From Nanobdellota archaeon (GTDB lineage Archaea; Nanobdellota; Nanobdellia; Woesearchaeales; DATDXC01): a stretch of DNA of 64,000 bases. Shown here piece by piece: positions 5,201 to 55,248 of the stretch. A program made the position numbers and the translations under genes. Numbering within the stretch: position 1 is the first letter of the stretch; every line of letters starts with the position of its first letter. Under the pieces are notes generated by a model, which was not told the DNA's origin, did no database searches, and worked only from the letters and a program-made list of their open reading frames with translations. The stretch is taken from contig JBDRFR010000069.1 of assembly GCA_043818675.1 (NCBI GenBank), forward strand, positions 14,877-78,876, written 5' to 3'.

Positions 5201-5704
5201 ATGATACCCAAAGGAAAAGATGCTCTTGAAAAGGAATATAGCAGGTGTTTAAATAAAAAAACATTTGTAAAAATCAGTAATGCAAGTTATATAGATTATC
5301 TAGATGAAGCATACTTTGATTTAAATTCTGCAGAGAAGGATACAGATGAAAAATGGGCTATAACTAAAGCATATCAAGCTTTGTTTTTGACTTGTAACGC
5401 ATTATTAGTCCGAAAGCTTGGATACTATTCAAAGGATCATAGTTGCGTTATTATTTCTTTAATGAGAAATAATATTATTTCTGAAAATACCCTTGAAAAA
5501 ATTAAGGATATGCTAAATGAAAAAAGAAAATTATTTTCAGAACTGCAAAGTAAAAATAATTTATTTGATGAAATATCAAATATTAGGATTACAAGGAATA
5601 AATATCTGTACCTTCCAAAGACTCAGAGAAGGTTAAAGAGTTCTGTAAAAGGAATAATTGAGGAAGTAAAGGAATTGATCAAAATTCTGGGTGATATAGA
5701 ATGA
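5201..5704 (+). CDS. HEPN-domain protein (167 aa)
   Basis: HEPN-like helices YIDYLDEAYFDLNSAEKDTDEKWAITKAYQALFLTCNALLVRKLGYYSKDHSCVI and an R-N-x-x-x-Y motif (IRITRNKYLY). SD GGTGAGAGG lies upstream. The stop overlaps the start of the adjacent nucleotidyltransferase gene (ATGA 5701-5704). Confidence 0.55.
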   Translation: MIPKGKDALEKEYSRCLNKKTFVKISNASYIDYLDEAYFDLNSAEKDTDEKWAITKAYQALFLTCNALLVRKLGYYSKDHSCVIISLMRNNIISENTLEKIKDMLNEKRKLFSELQSKNNLFDEISNIRITRNKYLYLPKTQRRLKSSVKGIIEEVKELIKILGDIE

Positions 5705-6303
5705 TCAGTGAAATACTGCCGCTTACCAAAAATAAACTTGAGATTTTTAAATATATTTACGAGAAAAAAGGGTCTCATCTTTTGGATATATCAAAAAATC
5801 TAAAAATACACCCTTATAGTGTTCAAAAGACCTTAAAGTCTATTAAGAAATTGTTTGTCGAGAAAAAAGCAGGAAGGACAATTATTTTGTCACTTGATAA
5901 GAACCTTCCAGGTTATTTTGAACTTCTTTATCTAATTGAGGACTATAAGCTTACAATTGATAGTAAAGATTTGAAAATACTGATAAGAAATCTGAAAGAA
6001 TTCTTCTCCAAAGATAAAAATGTGCTAAGTTGTGTTTTGTTTGGGTCATTTGCGCGGAATGTTTCTGGTGAAGATATTGATTTACTATTTTTGGTTAAGA
6101 AGAGATCAGATTATGTTATTGAAAAATGTTCCCAGCTTTCAACATTATTTGGAAAAGAAGTATCTCCTTTAGTCATGTTAGAAAAGGAGTTCAAGTCTGC
6201 TTTACAAAGTAAAGAGCCAACTATTATATCGATATTGGAGCCTTCTCAGCGGCTTTTGGTTGTCGGAAAAGAATACTTTTTGAGGTTTAGTTATGATGGA
6301 TAA
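5701..6303 (+). CDS. wHTH + minimal nucleotidyltransferase (MNT-like) protein (200 aa)
   Basis: NTase signature VLFGSFARNVSGEDIDLLFLV (GS...D-x-D) preceded by a winged-helix-like N-terminus (LEIFKYIYEKKGSHLLDISKNLKIHPYSVQKTLKSI). It is paired with the HEPN gene. Confidence 0.65.
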   Translation: MISEILPLTKNKLEIFKYIYEKKGSHLLDISKNLKIHPYSVQKTLKSIKKLFVEKKAGRTIILSLDKNLPGYFELLYLIEDYKLTIDSKDLKILIRNLKEFFSKDKNVLSCVLFGSFARNVSGEDIDLLFLVKKRSDYVIEKCSQLSTLFGKEVSPLVMLEKEFKSALQSKEPTIISILEPSQRLLVVGKEYFLRFSYDG

Positions 6304-10500: not shown

Positions 10501-13500
10501 GACATTGTGGTCGGAGACCAAGCTGCTGTTAAAGGATATGATAACGATTCAACCAATCTATGGAATTTTAATTTACCCTCGGATGATATATCCTCAATCT
10601 CCGTAGGAGACATCGATAGCGATGGTGATAAGGAGATTATTGCAGGGGGCCTTACAGACGGTACAGTATGGGTACTTAATAGAACTGGCAGCTTAGAATT
10701 TAGCTATAAAATTGGAACCGGCCATATTGGAAATACCTTCTATGCAAGCTCTCCATCAACTGATATTTCTGATGTTAATAATGATGGAATAAATGATATA
10801 GGTGTTGGTATCTATCTAACTAGTGATGATAGTTATGGATATATCTTCCAGGACGTCTCCTGCACAATAAAATTCAACGATTCTGCAACTATTTATAACA
10901 TGACATGGGATTACGTTACTGACAAATGGAATTACTCAAGAACGTTTTCGAATAATGTTGTCTATGCATATAATGTAACCTGCAGTAAAGGTGGCTATGT
11001 AACTCAAATCCAGGAATCAACAGTTGATTTAACACAGACCTTAATAATATGGGACGACTCTAACTCAAAAGTAACATATGCAAATTACACCAAATTTTAT
11101 GCAAATTACACCAAATCAAACGGAACCCCATTGACAGGCAGCGGTGAATGGTGCGAGTTTGCATTCAATAAAACAGGCCTTAACTGGAGCTTTTATACCG
11201 CCTATAACATGAGCTATAATCCAACTACAAAATTATACGAGATAATTGCTGATGGCGGCTATATTAAAAATAACACAGAATCGCATATTGGCGGGATGCC
11301 TGTTGGCAATTATAGCTTTAATATTTCCTGCTATGGCGGCAAAAACTTAACAGCAACAGACACAGTAAATGTTGCTAAGTATGATACAGGTTTATCTTTA
11401 ACACAGTCAAATGTTCATGCTGATATTAACACAGATGTTGAGTTCTTTGCTAATTACACAAGAGATACTGTATGGAATGTGGACAACTGGTTCAGAGATT
11501 CAGGAGAAATTGGCAGAGTTATATGGAATAGCAGTGATGTTGGAAACAGTCTTGTTGCACTAAGACCAGCTGACTTATCTAATGACGGATATCTGTCTGA
11601 TATAGTTACAGTAAATGACTACAAGATTATTGCACACTATCAAAACGGATCAGTAAGGTGGACTTTTTCAACTGGAGTTATCCAACAGGCAGGATCCTTA
11701 AACATTGTCAATCTGGATAACGACGGATTTAAAGATGATATAATTACAAAATTCTCTTATAACATATTTGTCCTTAATAAGACTGGTGATCAACTAAACA
11801 AAACAACTGTTGCAGACGGCGGTTGGGGAATTGGAGTTGCTGGTGATGCAAATAATGACGGAATAGAAGATGAGTTAGTAGTATCAGGCGTAAATTCTAA
11901 TCCGGCAATATTATACAATATATCTAACAGCGGACTTTCTGTTGTTAAACAATGGAATTTTTCAGTACCAGATGATATGAGGGAAGTAATATTCGGAGAT
12001 TTTGACTCAGACGGTTTGGATGATGATTTTGCAATTAGTGGAGTTGATTCAGGAAAAGGAACTTATGTTTATAAATGGAACGGGACAAATTTATTTAATG
12101 TAACTTATGGTGGACTTGCTATTGCCAAAGCTGATATTGACCATGATGGTTTTGAAGATGATATAGTGATTGCAGAAAACGGCAATTATCTTGTTTATTC
12201 TTTTAATGGAAGCTATAATACAAAATACACAAGCACAGATGAAGCAATGGTATACAATACAGATCCAATATCAGTATCCGCAGAGATGATTGTACTGGAT
12301 TTGGATTCAGACGGATTTAATGATGACATCATACTGGGAGATAGAGGCGGAGCAGCTGGACCTGGAATTGTCTGGGCATTTGACAACAATAGTATTGGAT
12401 TGTGGAATATCACATTACCTGCAAACGGAGATGATGATTACATCTATTCCATGGTCGTTGATGATTTTAATAACGATGGTAAACAAGAATTGATCTTTTC
12501 CAGTGAAGAGTTTGATAAAGTTTATGTTGCCAATCTGTCAGGATATGTACTTTGGGACCAGATCATTGGACAAGGAGATATCTCAGTGATTAAAGGAAAA
12601 TCTCCTGGCATCATAAGTATTGACATAAATAAAGATGGAATTTCTGATTTTGCGACCGCTTCCGCAAATGGTTTTGTCCATGTTCTGCAGGACGTATCCT
12701 GCACAATCCAATATGAATCAGAAGGTGGAGAGATTAACAGGACTGGTCAGAATTGGGAAAATGGTTTAGTTGCTCTATATCATTTTAATAATGAGTCTGC
12801 ATATGGCGAAACAACTGTTGGAGTTAATAATGTAACGTATGACTTTGCACCAGGTCACTGTTATGATAACGAAACAGAAATACTAACTAATGAAGGCTGG
12901 AAATTATTTTCAAAATTAAATAAAACTGAGCAAGTAGCAACATTAAATCAGGAAACAAAAGAATTGGAATGGCAGCATCCAATGGAATATCAAGAGTTTG
13001 ATTATGACAATGATATGTATAAGATTATATTGGAGGATGGATCAGATTTACTTGTTTCAGAAAAACATAGGGTTTATGGAAAATCAGTAAGCATCATCGT
13101 GATGAGTGAAATCTTCAAAGATGATCTTATTTTCTCTGACCTGGAAAGTCAGGACAAAATGCCCCACATGAACTCTTTTGAGATGGCTCAAATCCCCTTT
13201 GAGGTTCTTAAGGTGATTGATGGTGACAATATCCATTTCAGAAATTTGGATAATTTTTCTACTCAAAGCTTTGAAGAGAACAGGGTCTTTTCTCTTAATC
13301 TTGATCAGAGCCTTATCAATCTTGGAAATGTCAATATTCATAATTCATCCAGCCACTTTTTTAGTTCTTCGGGAGTCATTGCCTTGCCTTTAGCTGGGTC
13401 TTTAGATATTTTCTTTAACTTTTCTATGAACTCAGGCTTCATAGGAAATTCATCTAATGGATGCCAGTCAATAGATTCACAAAACTGCTCATCTTCCCTA

Positions 13501-16500
13501 GTTAGTTTCCTTGATACACGAAATTCTTCAAATATTCTTCGCTTGTTCAATTCCTCTCTAGCTGCTTCAGACCAGTTTATCCATGGAAATGCTTCAATTC
13601 TTGCCTTAAAGGATTTGTCTACAGGATATATTATACTAGCCATTTATAATTCACCCCTTGCCCTTAATTTTTCTAATGCTTCTAATTTCTTAAGCACACC
13701 CTGTTTTGCAACTTCAGACCAATTAATGTCAGGATGCTTGTCTAACTTTGCCTTAAAATCATCAGGTACTGATATAGTAAACCTTTCCATTTTTGATGCC
13801 TCCTGGATGATACAAGATAATAAAATTTTGGGTTCATCCAACAATTGTATTACTAAACACAATTGTGTTTATAAATCTTTTGATAATTTCAAGTTGATGC
13901 CTATAACTGATGCGTATGGGCTAATCAATTCAGGAAAACAGGTTTATTTCCTGGATGGTTTTAATAATGAGGTTAAAGTTAAGTCGATTGTTAAAGAAAA
14001 GTACAATGGCAGAATATATGATGTCGATGTAAAAAATGATGTTGTTTTGGTAAGAAGGATTGATAGGAATAATCGCACAAATAATTATGATAAAAAAGCC
14101 ACGCAAGCAGGAAAAAATTCATGCCACAATTCTGGGAAATATTGTTATGATAAAAGGACTAAGGAAAACTTCTTTTCTGAAAATGAGGATGGTTTGGGTA
14201 TATTGAGTGAGAGGGGTTATGAAACTAATTATTATGGTATATGGTCTGGGAATAGCAATAACGGAACTATTTATGGTGCTACAGTTGATATGACTGGTGG
14301 GAAGTGGAATGGGAGTTTGGAGTTTGATGGGGCGGGGGATTATGTTGATGCTGGAGATACATTTGATATGGGAACAAATGATCTGTCATTATCTGTATGG
14401 TTTAAAACATCTGATAGTGGTTCAAAAATTAAAACAATTATTTCAAAATCTTATGCATGGGATACAGGTGCATATAATTTGATTATTACTGCTGGTAATA
14501 ATCTAAGACTTCATGCTGAGAATAATACTGGTCAGGGTGAAGTAGATATAATAAGTCCTCTAACTTATACTGATGGACAATGGCATCATGCAGTAGGTAT
14601 TTTTGATAGAGATAAAAATGCAATATTATATGTTGATGGATCTGAAGTTGGTTCAACAACAATGGCAAATATTCTTAATCAGGATCTGGATACTACCTAT
14701 TCATTTAGAATTGGAATGTCACATTGGAATAGTTGGCCCAGACCTTTCAACGGCTCAATAGACGAAGTTGCAATTTGGAACAGAAGTCTTTCTGAATCTG
14801 AAGTCTGGGACTTGTACATGTCGTCAGCACCAAAATATAACATGACATGGGACTATACAAGAAAGAAATGGAACCATACAAAACAGTTCACTTCATACGG
14901 TAATTATACTTACGGAATAACATGCGAAAAAGGCGGCTACACAACCCAAAGAAGCTCAAGTTATGTTGATCTAACCCAATCATTAACAATATGGGATGAT
15001 TCTGATTCAAAAACAGCCTATGCAAATTACACCAAATTTTATGCAAATTACATAAGATCAAACGGAACAGCAATGAACGGAAACTATTGGTGCGAGTTTA
15101 AGTTCAATAAGACAGGCAGATGGACAAAACCAGTCAATATGAGCTTTAATCCAGTAAGCTTACAATATGAAATAATTGCTGATGGCGGATATATTCAGAA
15201 TTCAACTGAAACGCATATTGACGGGATGCCTACTGGAAATTACAGTTACAATATCTCCTGTTATGGTGGTGAATATAAATCACTAACAGATACTGTAAAT
15301 ATAGCAAAATATGATACTGCACTTGCTTTAACCCAAACAAACATCCATCCAAATACCTATTCAGATGTTGAGTTCTTTGCTAATTACACAAGGGCTACTG
15401 TATGGGATGTAGACAACTGGTGGTGGGATACAACTGAGATTGGGAGGGTGGTTTGGAATACAAGTGCTCTTGGAGGGAGTTCACATACTGTTGATTTCTT
15501 TGATTGTTTGAATAGTGGAAAGAAAAATTGCCTTGCGACCACAGAATATTCTGATATCTGGATGTTTTATCCAAATGGAACACAGATTACAGCATCTGGA
15601 ACTGCCTCAAATCCAGGAGGAGATTTATTAGATGCTAATGTTTTTGACGGAGATGGAGATGGTTATGAAAATGAGGTTCTTATTGTTGGAGATAATAATC
15701 AGGTTTTAGTTGTTAACGAGACAAGAAATACTGTGTATACCTATACTGCTGGAGGAGATATTTTTTCTGTTGTTGGAGCTGATTTAGATAACGATGGAGT
15801 CAAAGATGATTTTGTTATTGGTGCTTATACTGGGTCTGTTTATCAGGTCATGGCATTTAATACTTCTGATGGAGTTAATTGGGTGAATTTTTGGAACGGA
15901 ACTGTTGGAGGAGTTATTCAGGAAATGGTTATTGGTGACTTTGATAGAGATGGAAGGGAGATTGATGTTGCTGCTACAGGGACTTCGAATGGAAATGTTA
16001 CTGTTTTTGTTGGGGATAATGGAACATTGATATTTAGTACTGTTGACCTTGGGGCATTATCTTCACTTACAGTGTCTGATTTGAATCATGATAATTACAA
16101 TGATGAGATAATCGTGGGGGAGACGGGTGCCACTAGGGTTCTTGCGTTTAGGTGGAATGGGACATGGGGAGCAGAAATGCAAGATACAGACAATGATACT
16201 AATGGTTGGCTTTGGTCAAACACTCTTCCAACATACAGTATTACTGAAATTGATACTTTTGATGCAGATTTAGATGGTTACAAAGATGAGATTATTTTTG
16301 AAGATGGAGGCAGTTCATCAAACTCAAAAATTTGGGCAGTGGATGAAGAGGGCAACTACTTGTGGAATTTTACATGGGGGAACACAATTGATGTTTCATA
16401 TAGTCTTAATGTTGCTGATGTGAATAACGATGGAAAGGATGAGATAATTTTTGGACCTAGGAATGCTGCTACATTGTATGTTTTGAATATCTCTGGAGAT

Positions 16501-40500: not shown

Positions 40501-43500
40501 GACATAGACGACGGCAAATACTATTATCTTAAGCTCACTGCTAATTATACAACCTTAAACAATGCATTGACTGACACTGAACCCAACGCTATTTTATACC
40601 GTGACGTCACCGCTCCAACCATCATTTCAAAGAATAAGAAGAACATTGCGCCAGGTAGTGACGTGAACCTAACATTAAACATTACTGACAATGTTAATGT
40701 TTCAACTGTCATTGCTCAGCTGACCTATCCAAATATCACAGGCAATATATCCACCATAATTAATTATACAGCCTCCTATACAAACGGATTATATATTATC
40801 AGCTTATATGATTTGGTCCATATAGGCGATTATGATATTACATACTATATTAATGATACAACAGGCAATTCCCTAACCGACACAGACAATTTCGAGGTTT
40901 ATTTGATAAAACCCAGATTTTCCGGAACCATATCTGACTATCAGGGTAATGGTGTGCCATCTTTTTGGGAATTTTATAGGTCAAACACCTCTACCCTTCT
41001 CACGAATATAACGACTAACTCAACAGGAAGATACAATAGCGGAGATATTCATAACCGGACTTATGACCTTAGAATTAGCGCTCTTGGCCATAAAATAATC
41101 ATTAAAAATCTGAACTTCACAACAATTAAAAATGACGCAATAGACCTTGATTTGATTATTGGCACTGACATTGACACAATTATTACTAACTACAGGCCGT
41201 TAAAAGGTATCGGTGTTAATACAACCTTTAATGTAAGCTATGTCAACTTCACGATTAATTATAGCGGCACAAGTCCTGTATCAGAAACAGGCATAAAGAT
41301 TTTTAGATGTTCAAACTGGTCTTATAAGGTCAGAATTTGCGATAACACCTGGACAGAATTAAACAGCACTGTTTATGTTAGCAGGGATATAGTAATCGCT
41401 TCTTCTTCAGGATTTTCTGCATATATAGCTGCCGAGCTAAAATGCGGCAACGGCATATGCGAAGAGATATACGGTGAAACTTCAGCAAACTGCGCAGCTG
41501 ACTGCATAACAGCCCAGGGTCCAGCTTCAATTTCTGTTAGCAGCGGTGGTGGCGGTGGTGGCGGTGGCGGAGGCAGCGGACTGTCAAAAGAAGACTTAAG
41601 AGCTGAATTAGAAGCATTAAACTTGCTAAACATTACTGATAAGATTGAAGATATTGTCAAAGCCACAAAAAAACTGGCAGGTGTAGAAATGGCGACCACC
41701 TCGATATATAAGGAGCTTTTCCCAAAAGAAGACGCCTCAGCAAGGATTAGGATGCGAAACACTCTCGATACCAACATCAGATTAAACACCAAAGTTGAAG
41801 GCGCTGTAAAAGATTTTGTATTCTTTGAAAATTATGCAGTAACTCTTTCAGGCGGTGAAGAAAAAGACATTATAGTAAGAATAACCATCCCGCAGTTTAC
41901 AAAACCTGGATCATACGATGGTGACATTATTTTAATGCGTGACAATGAAGAGGTCAGGATCCCGACGACCATTAGAGTTTTACAGGAAGAAGGAAAACTT
42001 TTAGACGTCAAAATCCAGCCGTTAGTAGACTCAATCTCGCCTGGCGAAACTCTGCTTCTTCGAACAGACTTGATAAACCTTGGTAAGACTAAACGTGTGG
42101 ATGTCCAGTTTAAGCTGCAATTAACCGACCCCAGGACAGGTGAAATACTAAAAGAAACAGAAGAGGCATTTGCAATCGAGACATCACTAACAACAACAAA
42201 AGAACTTGAGATTCCAAAAGAGATCAAATTAGGCAAATATTTAGTTCAGGGCACTGCATATTATAGCAGTCTTGAAGACCGTAATCAGGAAGCAGTATCT
42301 ATTGCAACCATAAACATCCAGCAGCCATTTTTAGAAAGGGAATTTTTAGGCATTAAGAATGAAAGTTATATGTTCGGATTTATTATAGCTTTAGCATTGA
42401 TTGCACTGTTTATTTTCTACACATATAAGCAGAAAAAGAAGAAACGGTACATTAAGGTAATAGATCTTAAAACTTTGCCAAAACCCGGAAAGAATTCTGG
42501 ATTTATCGGTAAGATAGCAGAAACAGGCATTAGGACTTTCATTGACATTAACAAGCTTCAGACACATACACTTATAGCTGGCGCAACAGGCAGCGGTAAA
42601 ACAATAGCTATCCAGGACATTATCGAAGAGTCTCTTTTAAAAGGCATCAGTGTGATAGTCTTTGATCCTACTGCTCAATGGACCGGCTTTTTAAGAAAGT
42701 GTAAACAGCCGTCTATGTTAAAACGCTACAGTTATTTTGACATGAAGCCAAAAGACGCAAAAGCTTTCAAAGGCAACATCAGGACCATTACAAATCCGCG
42801 TGAGATTATTGAAATTAAGCAATTCATGGCTTCAGGTGAGATCACAATCTTTAACACAAGCAATCTCGAGCCAAAAGAGATGGACATTGTAGTAGCATCG
42901 ACTGTCCAGCAAATATTCAAGGCAAACCTAGAGGAAAGCCCTGACCTAAAAACTCTGATAGTCTATGACGAAGTTCACCGGCTGCTTCCAAAATTCGGCG
43001 GCAGCGGCAAAGGCTTTATACAGGTTGAAAGAGGCGTTAGAGAATTCAGGAAATGGGGTGTTGGCATTGTATTGATAAGCCAGGTGCTCAGCGACTTCAT
43101 CGGTGAGATCAAAGCTAATATAGGCACAGAGATCCAGTTAAGGACCCGTTACGAAAACGATCTCGAAAGGATCAGCATGAAATACGGTGAAGATATTCAA
43201 AAATCTATTGTAAAGGCCGCTGTAGGAACAGGTATGATCGTCAATGCTGAATATAACCATGGCCGCCCATATTTCGTCAGTTTCCGGCCAATACTTCATT
43301 CAATAACAAAAATAAATGACAAAGACCTTGCTAGTTATACACAATACGCAAAACGCACAGAGGATATTACTTACCAGCTTGAACAATTAAAACTTTTAAA
43401 TGTTGACATATTTGATTTAGAATTAGAGCTGAAGTTGTCCGATAGTAAAATTCGTTCCGGCCAGTTTGAAATGGTCGAGATTTACCTAAAATCTCTTGAG

Positions 43501-51785: not shown

Positions 51786-52526
51786 CTACGTTAATTCTAC
51801 ATAAAAGTAATAAACAGTTGACGCATCATCATCTCCGTTATCTGCAACCAGCATCTGAAAATCCCATATATTTCCGTCAAACCCTACTGTATTTTGGCTG
51901 ACTTCTGTTGCATATATCACTGTATTCTGATTATATTCTGTAAGTATTGTTTCATTAAAATAACTGGTCTGCGCCCCATTATTATCATACGTATTTGTTG
52001 AACGGCAGTTTAGGAGCTCCCTTGTACCGATTGTAATATTGCTGTATCCTCTGAAAGTCTCATCTATTCCGTCACTATCAGAGCTCGCCATGCCGTACAT
52101 TGACTCAAGCGTTGTATGATTGATTCCCTGTGTTCCAATAGAGCCATTGCCGCTAAAGTTTACACAATTAACATTGCCCCAATCTACTACCGTATTGTTT
52201 GCAGCATATATTTCACCGACCGGAGAAAAGCTTGAACCACCTGTCCAATCAAACATTGTATTGCCGCTTGCATCACCAAGGACAACTTTTCCGGAGATAT
52301 TACCATAGTATCCCTGCCATCTTTTTGTAACAATTGTAGTATTAATTGTAAGTTGCGTTACATTGCCTGCCTGTGCTCCAAGAGCCTGCGGATCCCCTGT
52401 TATATTAGTTCTGCTCGTAGTAACATTTTCAATAGAAGTAGGGCCATATGGATTGGCTAGAGTGATAGGTATTAAAATCGCTGCCACTAATAAAATTATT
52501 GCAATTCTTTTCATTGTTGTTTTCAT
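51786..52526 (-). CDS. secreted N-glycosylation-sequon-rich protein, paralogue 1 of 4 (246 aa)
   Basis: Signal peptide MKTTMKRIAIILLVAAILIPITLA. The conserved body is PYGPTSIENVTT...WQGY(Y/F)GNISG.VVLGD..GNTM.DWT..SSFSP.GEIYAAN...VDW..V.C.N..GNGS...GIN...LESM.GM...D.DGIDETF...YYFYVEL. Confidence 0.8.
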   Translation of the reverse strand: MKTTMKRIAIILLVAAILIPITLANPYGPTSIENVTTSRTNITGDPQALGAQAGNVTQLTINTTIVTKRWQGYYGNISGKVVLGDASGNTMFDWTGGSSFSPVGEIYAANNTVVDWGNVNCVNFSGNGSIGTQGINHTTLESMYGMASSDSDGIDETFRGYSNITIGTRELLNCRSTNTYDNNGAQTSYFNETILTEYNQNTVIYATEVSQNTVGFDGNIWDFQMLVADNGDDDASTVYYFYVELT

Positions 52527-52722
52527 TATAGCAAAGGACGTATTTTTACGAATAGCTGCATATCCTCAACAAAAGTGCATTATGTCCGCTATCATATCTG
52601 AAAACAATCACGCTTTCGTTTACATTCACATTTAATTACGTTTACGTTCACAATCCAAAGTAAGCATGAAGGATCTAAGGCAGTTGCCAAAATGTTTTAG
52701 ACACACCCTTAGTCCGTTGAAT

Positions 52723-53460
52723 TTATGCAAGTTCAACATAAAAGTAATATGCTGTCGCAAGTCCGTCACTGCCGTCATCAGCGACGATCATTTGAAAATC
52801 ATAGCTATTGCCATCAAAACCAGTTGCATCCTGGTCAACTTCTGTTGCAAAAATTACAGTCCCTTGAGATCTTTCTGTTAAAAGAGTCTCATTAAAGTAA
52901 GTGCTTTGAGCGCCATTATTATCGTATGTATTTGTTGCATGGCAATTCTGAAGCAGTGTTCCGGCTATTGTAATGTTATTCAAAGTACTAAACGTTTCAT
53001 CAATACCATCATTATCAGAACTTACCATACCAAACATAGATTCAAGTGCTGTTTGATTGATTCCTTGTGTTCCCACAGAACCGTTTCCGCTAAAATTAAC
53101 ACAGATAACATCACCCCAGTCCACAATTGTGTTGTTTGCAGCATAAATTTCTCCAATTGGTGAAAAGCTTGAATCAGCAGTCCAATCATACATTGTATTG
53201 CCGCTTGCATCACCTAAGACCACTCTTCCAGAAATATTACCAAAATAACCTTGCCAATTGCCGGTTGCTTGTGAGATATTAATCTCAAGTTTAGTATTAT
53301 TCCCTCCGTACGCGCCCAGACCCTGCGGAGCTCCCGCACTCGTATTGGTTTTATAAGTAGTTACATTTTCAATGGTTGTTGGCCCCCACGGTGCTGCTGT
53401 TACAACTGAACATAATACACTAATCACTAATAATCCTATGAGTAATATTCTCGTTGTCAT
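52723..53460 (-). CDS. secreted sequon-rich protein, paralogue 2 of 4 (245 aa)
   Basis: Same family. SD GGAGGAA lies directly upstream of the ATG (53460). Confidence 0.8.
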   Translation of the reverse strand: MTTRILLIGLLVISVLCSVVTAAPWGPTTIENVTTYKTNTSAGAPQGLGAYGGNNTKLEINISQATGNWQGYFGNISGRVVLGDASGNTMYDWTADSSFSPIGEIYAANNTIVDWGDVICVNFSGNGSVGTQGINQTALESMFGMVSSDNDGIDETFSTLNNITIAGTLLQNCHATNTYDNNGAQSTYFNETLLTERSQGTVIFATEVDQDATGFDGNSYDFQMIVADDGSDGLATAYYFYVELA

Positions 53461-53497
53461 TTTATTCCTCCATAATTACGCTTTCATTTACATTTGC

Positions 53498-53530
53498 GCA
53501 TAACAAAAATTATGCATGTTCAGCATAAAA
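53498..53530 (-). pseudogene. 33-nt relic of a paralogue 3' end/junction
   Basis: gcataacaaaaattatgcatgttcagcataaaa matches the stop-codon junction gcataacaaaaattatgcaagctcaacataaaa (53577-53609) at 30/33 positions, then diverges. Confidence 0.5.
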
Positions 53531-53588
53531 CTATATTCTTGTCTTCGTTTTTACCCTCATCAATTAAGTTGTGTAGGCATAACAAAAA

Positions 53589-54332
53589 TTATGCAAGCTC
53601 AACATAAAAGTAATAAGCTGTCGCAACTCCATCGCTGCCATCATCAGCAACAATCATCTGAAAGTCCCACTTGTTACCATCATATCCGGTAGCATCCTGG
53701 TCAACTTCTGTTGCAAAAATCACAGTCCCCTGCGATCTTTCTGTCAAAAGTGTTTCATTAAAATAAGTGCTCTGAATGCCGTTATTATCATACGTATTTG
53801 TGGCCCGGCAGTTCTCAACCATTGTTCCGGCTATTGTAATATTATTTATGCCAGTAAACGTTTCATCAATTCCATCTGTGTCTGTCGCACCCATACCATA
53901 CATAGATTCAAGTGTTGTATGATTAATTCCTTGCGATCCAATAGAGCCATTACCGCTAAAATTGACACAGATAACATCACTCCAGTCCACAATTGTTGCA
54001 TTAGCTGCATAAATTTCACCTATTGGTGAAAAGCTTGAACCAGCTGTCCAGTCATACATAGTATTGCCGTTTACATCACCCAAGACAACTTTTCCGGAAA
54101 TGTTACCAAAATAACCCTGCCAATTGCCCGTTGCTTGTGAGATATTAATTTCAAGCTGAGTATTATTCCCTCCATGTGCGCCAAGCGCCTGTGGAGTGCC
54201 GATACTCGTATTAGTTTTATAAGTAGTTACATTTTCAATGGATGTTGGCCCCCATGGTGCAGCCATCACAACCGAACATAATACAGTTATTACAAACAAC
54301 CCCAAAATCATTATTCTGATCTTCATTTTCAT
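53589..54332 (-). CDS. secreted sequon-rich protein, paralogue 3 of 4 (247 aa)
   Basis: Same family. SD GGAGGAA lies upstream. Only 35 nt separate it from paralogue 4. The 5' and 3' ends are nt-identical to paralogue 4 over 53 and 93 nt. Confidence 0.85.
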   Translation of the reverse strand: MKMKIRIMILGLFVITVLCSVVMAAPWGPTSIENVTTYKTNTSIGTPQALGAHGGNNTQLEINISQATGNWQGYFGNISGKVVLGDVNGNTMYDWTAGSSFSPIGEIYAANATIVDWSDVICVNFSGNGSIGSQGINHTTLESMYGMGATDTDGIDETFTGINNITIAGTMVENCRATNTYDNNGIQSTYFNETLLTERSQGTVIFATEVDQDATGYDGNKWDFQMIVADDGSDGVATAYYFYVELA

Positions 54333-54367
54333 TTCCTCCTTTTTATAATTTCAATTCATAACAAAAA

Positions 54368-55120
54368 TTATGCAAGCTCAACATAAAAGTAATAAGCTGT
54401 CGCAACTCCATCGCTGCCATCATCAGCAACAATCATCTGAAAGTCCCACCTGTTACCATCATAACCAACAGTATCCTGGTCAACTTGCGTTGCATAAATT
54501 ACTGTGCCTTGCGTCTTTTCTGTCAAAAGTGTCTCATTAAATTTGGTGGTTTGAACACCATTACTATCATATGTATTGGTCGCCCAACAGTTATCAATCA
54601 ATGTTCCAGCTATTGTAATGTTATTAATGCTGTTAAACGTTTCATCAATTCCATCAGTATCTGCTGCAAGCATACCATACATGGATTCAAGTATTGAATT
54701 GTTAATACCTGGAGGATTTGATCCATCAATAGAGCCGTTTCCAGTCAAGTTAAGACAAATAACGTCACCCCAGTCCACAATTGTTGCATTAGCTGCATAA
54801 ATTTCACCTATTGGTGAAAAGCTTGAACCAGCTGTCCAGTCATACATAGTATTGCCGTTTACATCACCCAGGACAACTTTTCCAGAAATGTTACCAAAAT
54901 AACCCTGCCAGTTACCCGTTGCTTGTGAGATATTGATTTCAAGCTGTGTATTATTTCCCCCGTGTGCGCCCAGCGCCTGTGGAGTGCCGACACTCGTATT
55001 AGTTTTATACGTAGTTACATTTTCAATGGATGTTGGCCCATACGGCGCAGCCATCACAACCGAACATAATACAGTTATTACAAACAACCCCAAAATCATC
55101 ATTCTTATCTTCATTTTCAT
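54368..55120 (-). CDS. secreted sequon-rich protein, paralogue 4 of 4 (250 aa)
   Basis: Same family. I place the start at ATG 55120 (MKMKIRMMILG) with GGAGGAA at 55121-55127. The track ORF extends 36 codons further (to 55228) with no support. Confidence 0.8.
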   Translation of the reverse strand: MKMKIRMMILGLFVITVLCSVVMAAPYGPTSIENVTTYKTNTSVGTPQALGAHGGNNTQLEINISQATGNWQGYFGNISGKVVLGDVNGNTMYDWTAGSSFSPIGEIYAANATIVDWGDVICLNLTGNGSIDGSNPPGINNSILESMYGMLAADTDGIDETFNSINNITIAGTLIDNCWATNTYDSNGVQTTKFNETLLTEKTQGTVIYATQVDQDTVGYDGNRWDFQMIVADDGSDGVATAYYFYVELA

Positions 55121-55248
55121 TTCCTCCTTTTTTAAATTTTTAATAATGTGTAAGCAAAAAAAAAGGGATTCAAGGCAGAAATCAAAAAGACGTGCGAGGT
55201 GTTTTAGATGTTCCCCTTGTTCTCCCAATTAATATAATACTCTAAATT

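Follow-up and report, generated by a model that had tools for sequence, protein, structure and literature searches.

What purpose does a perfect palindrome with an adjoining TATA-like box serve inside the reading frame of a giant gene? This question is raised by a stretch of 64,000 nucleotides from a Nanobdellota archaeon (contig JBDRFR010000069.1, positions 14,877 to 78,876; hereafter the window, with positions counted from its first letter). On the strand opposite to the giant open reading frame (ORF), three tightly packed genes lie downstream of the palindrome: RHH48, coding for a small predicted ribbon-helix-helix (RHH) protein, P101, coding for a larger protein with an RHH-type N-terminus, and a gene for a RelE-like toxin. 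Since the large subunit of replication factor C, aRF1 and aIF5A are encoded nearby, the window is archaeal. We consider it probable, judging from the sequence and its relatives, that positions 13839-13882 constitute an archaeal core promoter and two-dyad operator of this minus-strand RHH48-P101-RelE cassette, bound by the cassette's own RHH-domain proteins. A sequence-only reading of the window had proposed an autoregulatory operator of a toxin-antitoxin (TA) cassette at this place, and the proposal gains support from boxes found throughout the family, from a B recognition element (BRE) and TATA box shared by most of its promoters and from a change of the boxes from clade to clade. The same reading had described the cassette by its 48- and 101-residue RHH proteins; both do have RHH-type N-termini, and the description is amended here to three genes, including the toxin.

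Sequence anatomy of the promoter region

The 16-nt palindrome of the sequence-only reading, AAACACAATTGTGTTT at 13855-13870, lies where it had been placed and is the inner part of a perfect palindrome of 18 nt, here called box 1 (Table 1), whose 12-nt core is ACACAATTGTGT (13857-13868). The motif ACAATTGT within this core (13859-13866) recurs, as had also been noted, at 13841-13848, so that the two copies start 18 nt apart. The second copy forms the core of box 2, and the centre-to-centre distance between the boxes is likewise 18 nt. The 3' edge of the TATA box TTTATAAA falls within box 1; the TATA box had been put at about 80 nt upstream of the ATG of the 48-residue ORF (13790, minus strand) and spans the nucleotides 78-85 nt upstream of it. 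A GAGGT or GGAGG is found in homologues at the place of the Shine-Dalgarno-like sequence. On the plus strand, the giant frame reads NNCITKHNCVYKSF across the site, with the BRE and TATA elements translated as V-Y-K-S-F and box 1 as H-N-C.

Table 1. Features at and around the candidate promoter-operator
Feature	Position	Strand	Remarks
Host ORF	7519-43815	plus	12,098 aa; reads through the antisense cassette without a stop
Predicted intein (Hint domain) of the giant ORF	12859-14253	plus	N part to about 13083, C part from 13888
T-rich tracts 3' of the toxin stop	13061-13083	minus	TTTT 13083-13080, TTTTT 13065-13061; read from the sequence only
RelE/YafQ-like toxin	13084-13341	minus	85 aa; TIGR00053 YafQ family
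P101	13338-13643	minus	101 aa; RHH-type N-terminal 35 residues and helical C-terminal part
RHH48	13644-13790	minus	48 aa; predicted ribbon-helix-helix protein, first cassette gene
Shine-Dalgarno-like sequence	13803-13799	minus	GGAGG, 8 nt ahead of the ATG of the 48-aa gene
Leader insertion	13804-13842 (approximate)	minus	window-specific; 39 nt, 13 codons in frame; from comparison with L164 and L165
Operator box 2 (candidate)	13839-13850		ATACAATTGTTG in minus-strand reading; core ACAATTGT at 13841-13848
Operator box 1 (candidate)	13854-13871		TAAACACAATTGTGTTTA, perfect 18-nt palindrome
TATA box	13868-13875	minus	TTTATAAA; 7/8 match to the family consensus TTTAWATA
BRE-like element	13876-13882	minus	purine/A-rich CAAAAGA directly upstream of TATA; fits family (C/A)(G/A)AAA-N2

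In most homologous promoters the TATA box starts 55-56 nt ahead of the ATG. The atypical distance in the window (85 nt) is due to the 39-nt leader insertion, which lies between box 2 and the Shine-Dalgarno-like sequence and holds a 7-bp inverted repeat (TGGATGA/TCATCCA); the hairpin predicted in the insertion lacks significance (z -0.6). The homologous locus L014 has a comparable insertion of about 40 nt (5780-5847) with a strong predicted fold (z -3.5). At the other end of the cassette, the T-rich tracts behind the toxin gene may be an archaeal terminator and, read in the sense direction, supply some of the codons of block B (S-E-K-H) of the intein described below.

The promoter elements recur in homologous cassettes

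By chance alone a palindrome of this kind is not surprising. Of perfect palindromes 16 nt or longer the window contains two, whereas dinucleotide shuffles contain 1.8 +/- 1.3, and the palindrome is therefore not significant on its own. The only other one, AGAAATAATATTATTTCT at 5465-5482, lies inside an ORF at 5201-5704. The motif ACAATTGT occurs eight times, against 2.7 +/- 1.8 expected, and the six copies outside the two boxes fall within repeated coding sequence; four tandem paralogous genes of about 245-286 codons each (51786-55228, minus strand) carry it at the corresponding position (52330, 53123, 53989 and 54777), and these copies are due to paralogy and unrelated to the operator. For two copies within 30 nt, a rough estimate made by hand rather than computed by a tool gives about 0.03 expected pairs. 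A scan for sigma-70 promoters, which is uninformative for an archaeon, returned four sites where 3.3 were expected. The exact 18-mer also turned up in three viral contigs, matches that we attribute to chance because none of these contigs encodes a cassette protein; the viral collection held no relatives of P101.

The real support for the putative operator is its conservation in homologous cassettes, not the rarity of the palindrome. Searches with P101 led to 160 archaeal loci in DPANN groups, Methanosarcinales, Thermoplasmatota and Altiarchaeota, with all three genes in the same order in 139. The sequence cgaAA.aTTTAaATA, that is, a BRE-like (C/A)(G/A)AAA followed by TTTAWATA, lies 50-60 nt ahead of the ATG in 105 of the 128 distinct promoters, and the CAAAAGA-TTTATAAA of the window fits this consensus. 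Two dyad-symmetric boxes follow across the family, between the TATA box and the Shine-Dalgarno sequence. Averaging palindrome scores by distance from the ATG gave a profile smeared by AT-rich runs, and the offset of direct repeats was used instead: the best internal direct repeat has an offset of exactly 18 nt, as in the window, in 64 of 129 distinct promoters versus 8 of 129 shuffles. When the best two sites at a distance of 17-19 nt are scored, at least 9 of 12 palindromic pairs are present in 90 of 130 promoters, a count without a shuffled control.

That the palindrome should be conserved in homologous cassettes, as the sequence-only reading would have it, holds most plainly for the closest relatives. 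A protein 85% identical to RHH48 (P0012) is found on 21 contigs and has the promoter ATTATAAACACAATTGTGTTTATCAACACACGAGGTG; in loci L165-L174, whose RHH protein has this same identity, the identical 18-mer abuts the TATA box ATTATAAA. In L164 (promoter region TTTATAAATACAATTGTGTTTCTTCACACAATTGGAGGTG), TACAATTGTG and CACAATTG are separated by an 8-nt gap, which is the geometry of the window. In an alignment of nine promoters with CACA-type boxes, CA.TTGTG of box 1 is invariant and the spacer varies. The boxes and the TATA box also precede free cassettes, in which no intein flanks the genes and the antisense frames contain 5-13 stops, and the boxes thus serve the cassette rather than a host protein.

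In the ATGCA-box clade, free cassettes are preceded, at a distance of about 80-110 nt, either by a tRNA-Glu gene (L010, 1022-1098; L114, 766-842) or, in seven loci (L115, L118, L120, L122, L127, L131 and L152), by a sequence resembling a tRNA 3' end (...ATCCCGACGGGAGCA) at which no tRNA was called. This adjacency of ATGCA-box cassettes would fit integration at tRNA genes.

Box sequence varies with P101

The palindromic boxes differ by clade (types ATGCAnnTGCAT, ACACAnTTGTGT, ACGCAnTTGCGT, AAGTAATnACTT and ACTAAnTTTAGT). Among 65 promoters of standard geometry, residues 3, 5 and 7 of P101 are C-T-S where the box core is TGCA, S-I-P where it is CACA, S-T-P where it is CGCA, S-T-T where it is AGTA and S-T-S where it is CTAA. 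The corresponding residues of RHH48 are R-T-S alike in the TGCA, CACA, AGTA and CGCA clades. The window, with S-I-P in P101 and CACA boxes, is consistent with this table. Since the box core tracks these residues of the P101 N-terminal strand better than it tracks RHH48, the variable half-site is more likely to be read by P101, with RHH48 perhaps acting as a second repressor or as a partner.

The cassette proteins

RHH48 matches Pfam RHH_1 at E 0.006 and the VapB-like NCBIfam model NF050799 at E 1.9e-5, and homologues, one of them 85% identical, have precomputed matches to Pfam RHH_12 (PF26688). Its AlphaFold2 (AF2) monomer prediction, built on an alignment of two sequences, consists of coil (residues 1-9) and two helices (10-17 and 24-45). 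Homology to the RHH48 family extends over the first 35 residues of P101 (hhalign probability 97.4%, E 1.2e-11), and the AF2 monomer of P101 (pLDDT 74) has an extended N-terminal segment (1-9) followed by two helices, as in RHH48; there is also a weak match to DUF2683 (E 2.5e-4). P101, whose gene overlaps the start of the toxin gene by 4 nt, is likely the antitoxin proper.

The toxin matches TIGR00053 at E 3.4e-9 with 37 bits, below the curated cut-off of 87, and the profile of its family matches RelE3 of M. jannaschii (PDB 3bpq_B) at E 8.8e-4. The toxin of the window has no Pfam match, neither the profiles of RHH48 and P101 nor the toxin sequence by itself had a significant match among PDB sequences, and PADLOC recognised none of the three cassette proteins.

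The cassette fills the insert of a predicted intein

The sequence-only reading had placed the site inside a giant coding sequence. It does lie within that ORF, in the insert of an intein rather than in ordinary coding sequence: the cassette and its promoter fill the space between the N- and C-terminal splicing parts. We assign 12859-14253 as a predicted intein with a class 1 Hint domain. It begins with Cys1 (12859), contains block B as SEKH and block F as YDVDVKND, and ends in IWSGN followed by Ser+1, the penultimate residue being Gly, not His. The window intein matches Pfam Intein_splicing or Hint_2 and TIGR01445 weakly; homologous mini-inteins match Pfam Intein_splicing at E 7.7e-8, and solved inteins are the only matches of the mini-intein profile in the PDB, with weak E-values (0.009-0.06). 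Excision of 12859-14253 yields YDFAPGHSNNGT, which can be aligned, allowing a one-residue indel, to YDFSGNGNNGT, the LamG repeats that occur in the same protein without an intein, so that removal of the intein restores the paralogue motif YDF(S-GN/APGH)(G/S)NNGT. Alternative ends at CHN^S (14121-14131; ^ marks the splice junction) or at RRKN^S were rejected, because IWSGN^S is conserved across two exteins and restores the paralogue sequence.

Inteins with an antisense cassette occur in the window and in L004 (1780-3006), L087 (1626-2900), L030 (262-1551), L161 and L164. One host is the protein with LamG-type repeats (...YDFAPGH^C...IWSGN^SNNGT) and the other is unrelated to it (...QPYE^C...IWSGN^SNYDLQFLEIK); Cys1, SEKH and IWSGN^S are kept across these two different exteins. 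Because the same cassette-bearing intein resides in at least two different host proteins, it appears to be mobile despite having no endonuclease domain. The window intein has about 50 extra residues (IDRNNRTNNYDKK...ERGYETNYY; 14070-14235, plus strand) between block F and IWSGN, a stretch absent from L161, L004, L087 and L030. The C-terminal end of the giant ORF (42600-43815, plus strand) has a P-loop, GATGSGKT, after a hydrophobic segment and looks HerA/FtsK-like by a reading of the translation only.

Antisense frames free of stops

Over about 710 nt, 32 of 122 distinct cassettes are free of stops in one antisense frame; in the best antisense frame of the others, 13 have 1-4 stops and 77 have 5-13. 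The stop-free class, which includes the window (13084-13862), L004, L087, L030, L029, L041, L023 and L027, has open antisense stretches of up to 1,875 codons. Intein halves flank 6 of 35 stop-free cassettes directly versus none of 99 others, and the window, L161 and L164 add further cases. These counts suggest a cassette lineage adapted to life inside host ORFs.

Substitutions between relatives fall mostly on third positions of the cassette codons (125, against 72 on first and 48 on second positions); in two of the three genes, these third positions are also those of the sense frame. Since the boxes and the TATA box are present at free cassettes, the sense peptides V-Y-K-S-F and H-N-C are by-products. 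The sequence-only reading had supposed that the site is under dual constraint. The sense frame does encode a peptide across it, but the constraint on the sense strand looks like little beyond keeping the reading frame open, given that free cassettes keep the boxes.

Several antisense-open cassettes stand in tandem within one long open frame in L018, L023, L029, L083, L160 and L163, and L163 has a second, different RHH-led cassette beside the first. In L041 (2140-2846) an antisense-open cassette lies in an open frame of 1,234 codons, and its flanks show no recognisable Hint domain. A host peptide, ITSAEVxPTKVIPGDTMTITARxED..GIETVTADM, is duplicated and stands on both sides of the cassette, and the YAPGH in the flank on its N side resembles the DFAPGH of the N-extein in the window.

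A model of autoregulation and its alternatives

How might the site work? TBP and TFB would assemble on the BRE-like CAAAAGA and the TATA box TTTATAAA, and transcription would start about 24-27 nt downstream of the TATA box, near 13845. With the usual archaeal spacing, box 1 would extend from about -18 to about -7 and box 2 from about +1 to about +12 relative to the start, so that box 2 would lie over the predicted start. Dimers of the cassette's RHH-domain proteins would bind the boxes ACACAATTGTGT and ATACAATTGTTG, with the toxin probably acting as a co-repressor, as in RelBE-type systems. The bound operator would then block recruitment of TFB and RNA polymerase, resulting in negative autoregulation, and possession of its own promoter would make the cassette transcriptionally independent of the host gene.

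The sequence anatomy, its conservation, the co-variation and the fold and family assignments are direct observations; the start site, binding, repression and any co-repression by the toxin are inferred. Several points weigh against this model. The palindrome alone is no rarer than chance in an AT-rich window (36% G+C). The scores of RHH48 against RHH_1 and the VapB-like family are both under the curated cut-offs, and Foldseek matched the AF2 model of neither P101 nor RHH48 to anything meaningful in the PDB. The co-variation of P101 with the boxes is confounded by shared ancestry, and the register of the DNA-facing strand residues is assumed. Box 1 is 6 bp nearer to the TATA box in the window, L164 and L165 than in most homologues. 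Finally, the leader insertion carries a second TATA-like sequence, TTTTATTA (13825-13818), that could drive unregulated, near-leaderless transcription.

It is unlikely that the boxes are instead cis elements for a host regulator, or recombination or insertion sites that mark the end of a mobile cassette. They lie at the extreme edge of the cassette, adjoining the C part of the intein, and the occurrence of cassettes in arrays and beside tRNA-Glu genes or fragments does suggest mobility. However, the boxes change with the cassette's own proteins across many host lineages, as expected of a cognate partner, and their position is fixed relative to the TATA box and the ATG, as in an operator. Moreover, a reading of the sequence at the toxin end of the cassette showed no repeat to match them.

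A role of the palindromes as RNA, in the form of hairpins in the 5' leader of the cassette or in the giant sense mRNA that affect stability, translation or sense/antisense pairing, seems highly unlikely. While the boxes can pair, with a predicted fold of -10.2 kcal/mol (z -2.3) on the minus strand and -7.5 kcal/mol (z -1.8) on the plus strand, these z-scores are weak and pairing is automatic for repeated palindromes. A start about 25 nt past the TATA box would leave box 1 untranscribed on the minus strand, and the boxes of homologues are imperfect dyads with a variable centre, as is typical of sites for dimeric proteins, and the stems are short and AU-rich.

There is very little probability that selection on the sense-strand protein, for example on a Cys/His motif NC..HNC in the intein insert, accounts for the conservation. 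All embedded copies translate the boxes as H-N-C or H-K-C and the BRE and TATA elements as [IV][YF]K[SP]F, as that explanation would predict, but the same boxes and TATA box occur at free cassettes, where no sense-strand protein can constrain them, and the excess of substitutions at third positions of the cassette codons points the same way. The idea that the palindrome and a TATA-like string are functionless chance features of AT-rich coding DNA, consistent as it is with the shuffles and with the abundance of strings like TTTATAAA at this G+C content, has next to no credibility in view of the identical 18-mer and geometry in relatives from other metagenomes, the 18-nt spacing and BRE/TATA counts across the family, the co-variation of box and protein clade, and the free cassettes, which speak against misaligned coding sequence.

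Comparison with known systems

Autoregulatory operators of TA operons are textbook knowledge in bacteria. A small stand-alone DNA-binding protein encoded first, followed by antitoxin and toxin, is familiar from omega-epsilon-zeta, where omega is an RHH protein, and from PaaR-PaaA-ParE. The cassette of the window differs from both in that its first two proteins both carry an RHH-type N-terminus and are paralogous there, and in its toxin family. In YefM-YoeB the promoter palindromes have a fixed centre-to-centre spacing of 12 bp; that system is bacterial and its antitoxin has the Phd/YefM fold, whereas the window has a predicted RHH fold and a spacing of 18 bp. In YefM-YoeB, antitoxin dimers bind two adjacent palindromes of the promoter (PMC1802561). 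In systems of the RelBE type, the antitoxin represses the promoter of its own operon by way of repeated or palindromic sites, and the toxin serves as co-repressor (PMC2812701). An RHH antitoxin gene upstream of a RelE/YafQ-type toxin gene is the arrangement of E. coli RelBE, DinJ-YafQ and M. jannaschii RelBE3 (PDB 3bpq) and, by prediction, of the window. The bacterial RelBE and DinJ-YafQ operons have sigma-70 promoters, whereas the window has an archaeal BRE/TATA and an additional stand-alone gene for a 48-residue RHH protein; measured against these systems, its toxin scores below the curated YafQ cut-off.

In archaea, palindrome-mediated TA autoregulation was first reported experimentally only in 2026, for the haloarchaeal VapBC system NgVapBC1 of Natrinema gari J7-2 (PMC13488343). 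There, a conserved pseudo-palindrome just downstream of the TATA box is a negative cis element; the system was tested by electrophoretic mobility shift and reporter assays, and the mechanism proposed is a block of TFB and RNA polymerase recruitment (PMC13488343). It is the closest precedent with experimental tests. NgVapBC1 and the window cassette are alike as type II TA operons of archaea that have a dyad by the TATA box and an antitoxin of RHH type, in the window by prediction. NgVapBC1 has a VapC toxin of the PIN family, two genes, a single 7-N4-7 pseudo-palindrome and an intergenic promoter. In contrast, the window cassette has a RelE-like toxin, three genes, two dyads 18 bp apart and a promoter inside coding sequence.

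Implications

As an operator, then, the site belongs to a familiar class. What is unusual is where it stands, within intein coding sequence, as the autonomous promoter-operator of an antisense cassette whose three genes include two RHH paralogues. For a complete self-regulated operon antisense within an intein insert that is kept open, we found no report in a search of the literature outside subscription journals. The homing endonuclease domain of inteins sits between the N- and C-terminal splicing blocks of the Hint domain, and the window intein resembles endonuclease-bearing inteins in holding a foreign insert at this very place, a selfish element nested in a selfish element. Its cargo, however, is an opposite-strand operon of three genes with its own promoter-operator and a stop-free sense strand, not an in-frame endonuclease domain. 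One selfish element thus appears to run its own transcription from inside another.

It is tempting to go one step further and propose, tentatively and with more doubt than confidence, that the arrangement is an addiction module: a self-sufficient cassette, antisense inside a putatively splicing-competent intein at the usual position of the homing endonuclease, and belonging to a lineage (the 32 of 122 cassettes) purged of antisense stops. If so, the cassette could penalise loss of the intein or of the giant gene, which would be a new way for an endonuclease-free intein to persist. Tight autorepression would, in that case, limit head-on transcription and the pairing of sense and antisense RNA in the host gene; conversely, a repressor bound within the coding region could affect how strongly the giant gene is expressed. 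More than 100 natural promoter variants, with a fixed geometry of TATA box and boxes and with co-varying protein partners, provide a data set for the recognition code of archaeal RHH proteins. If the cassette is expressed, it raises the questions of how inteins persist without an endonuclease, how coding sequence tolerates a promoter and how selfish elements may stabilise one another.

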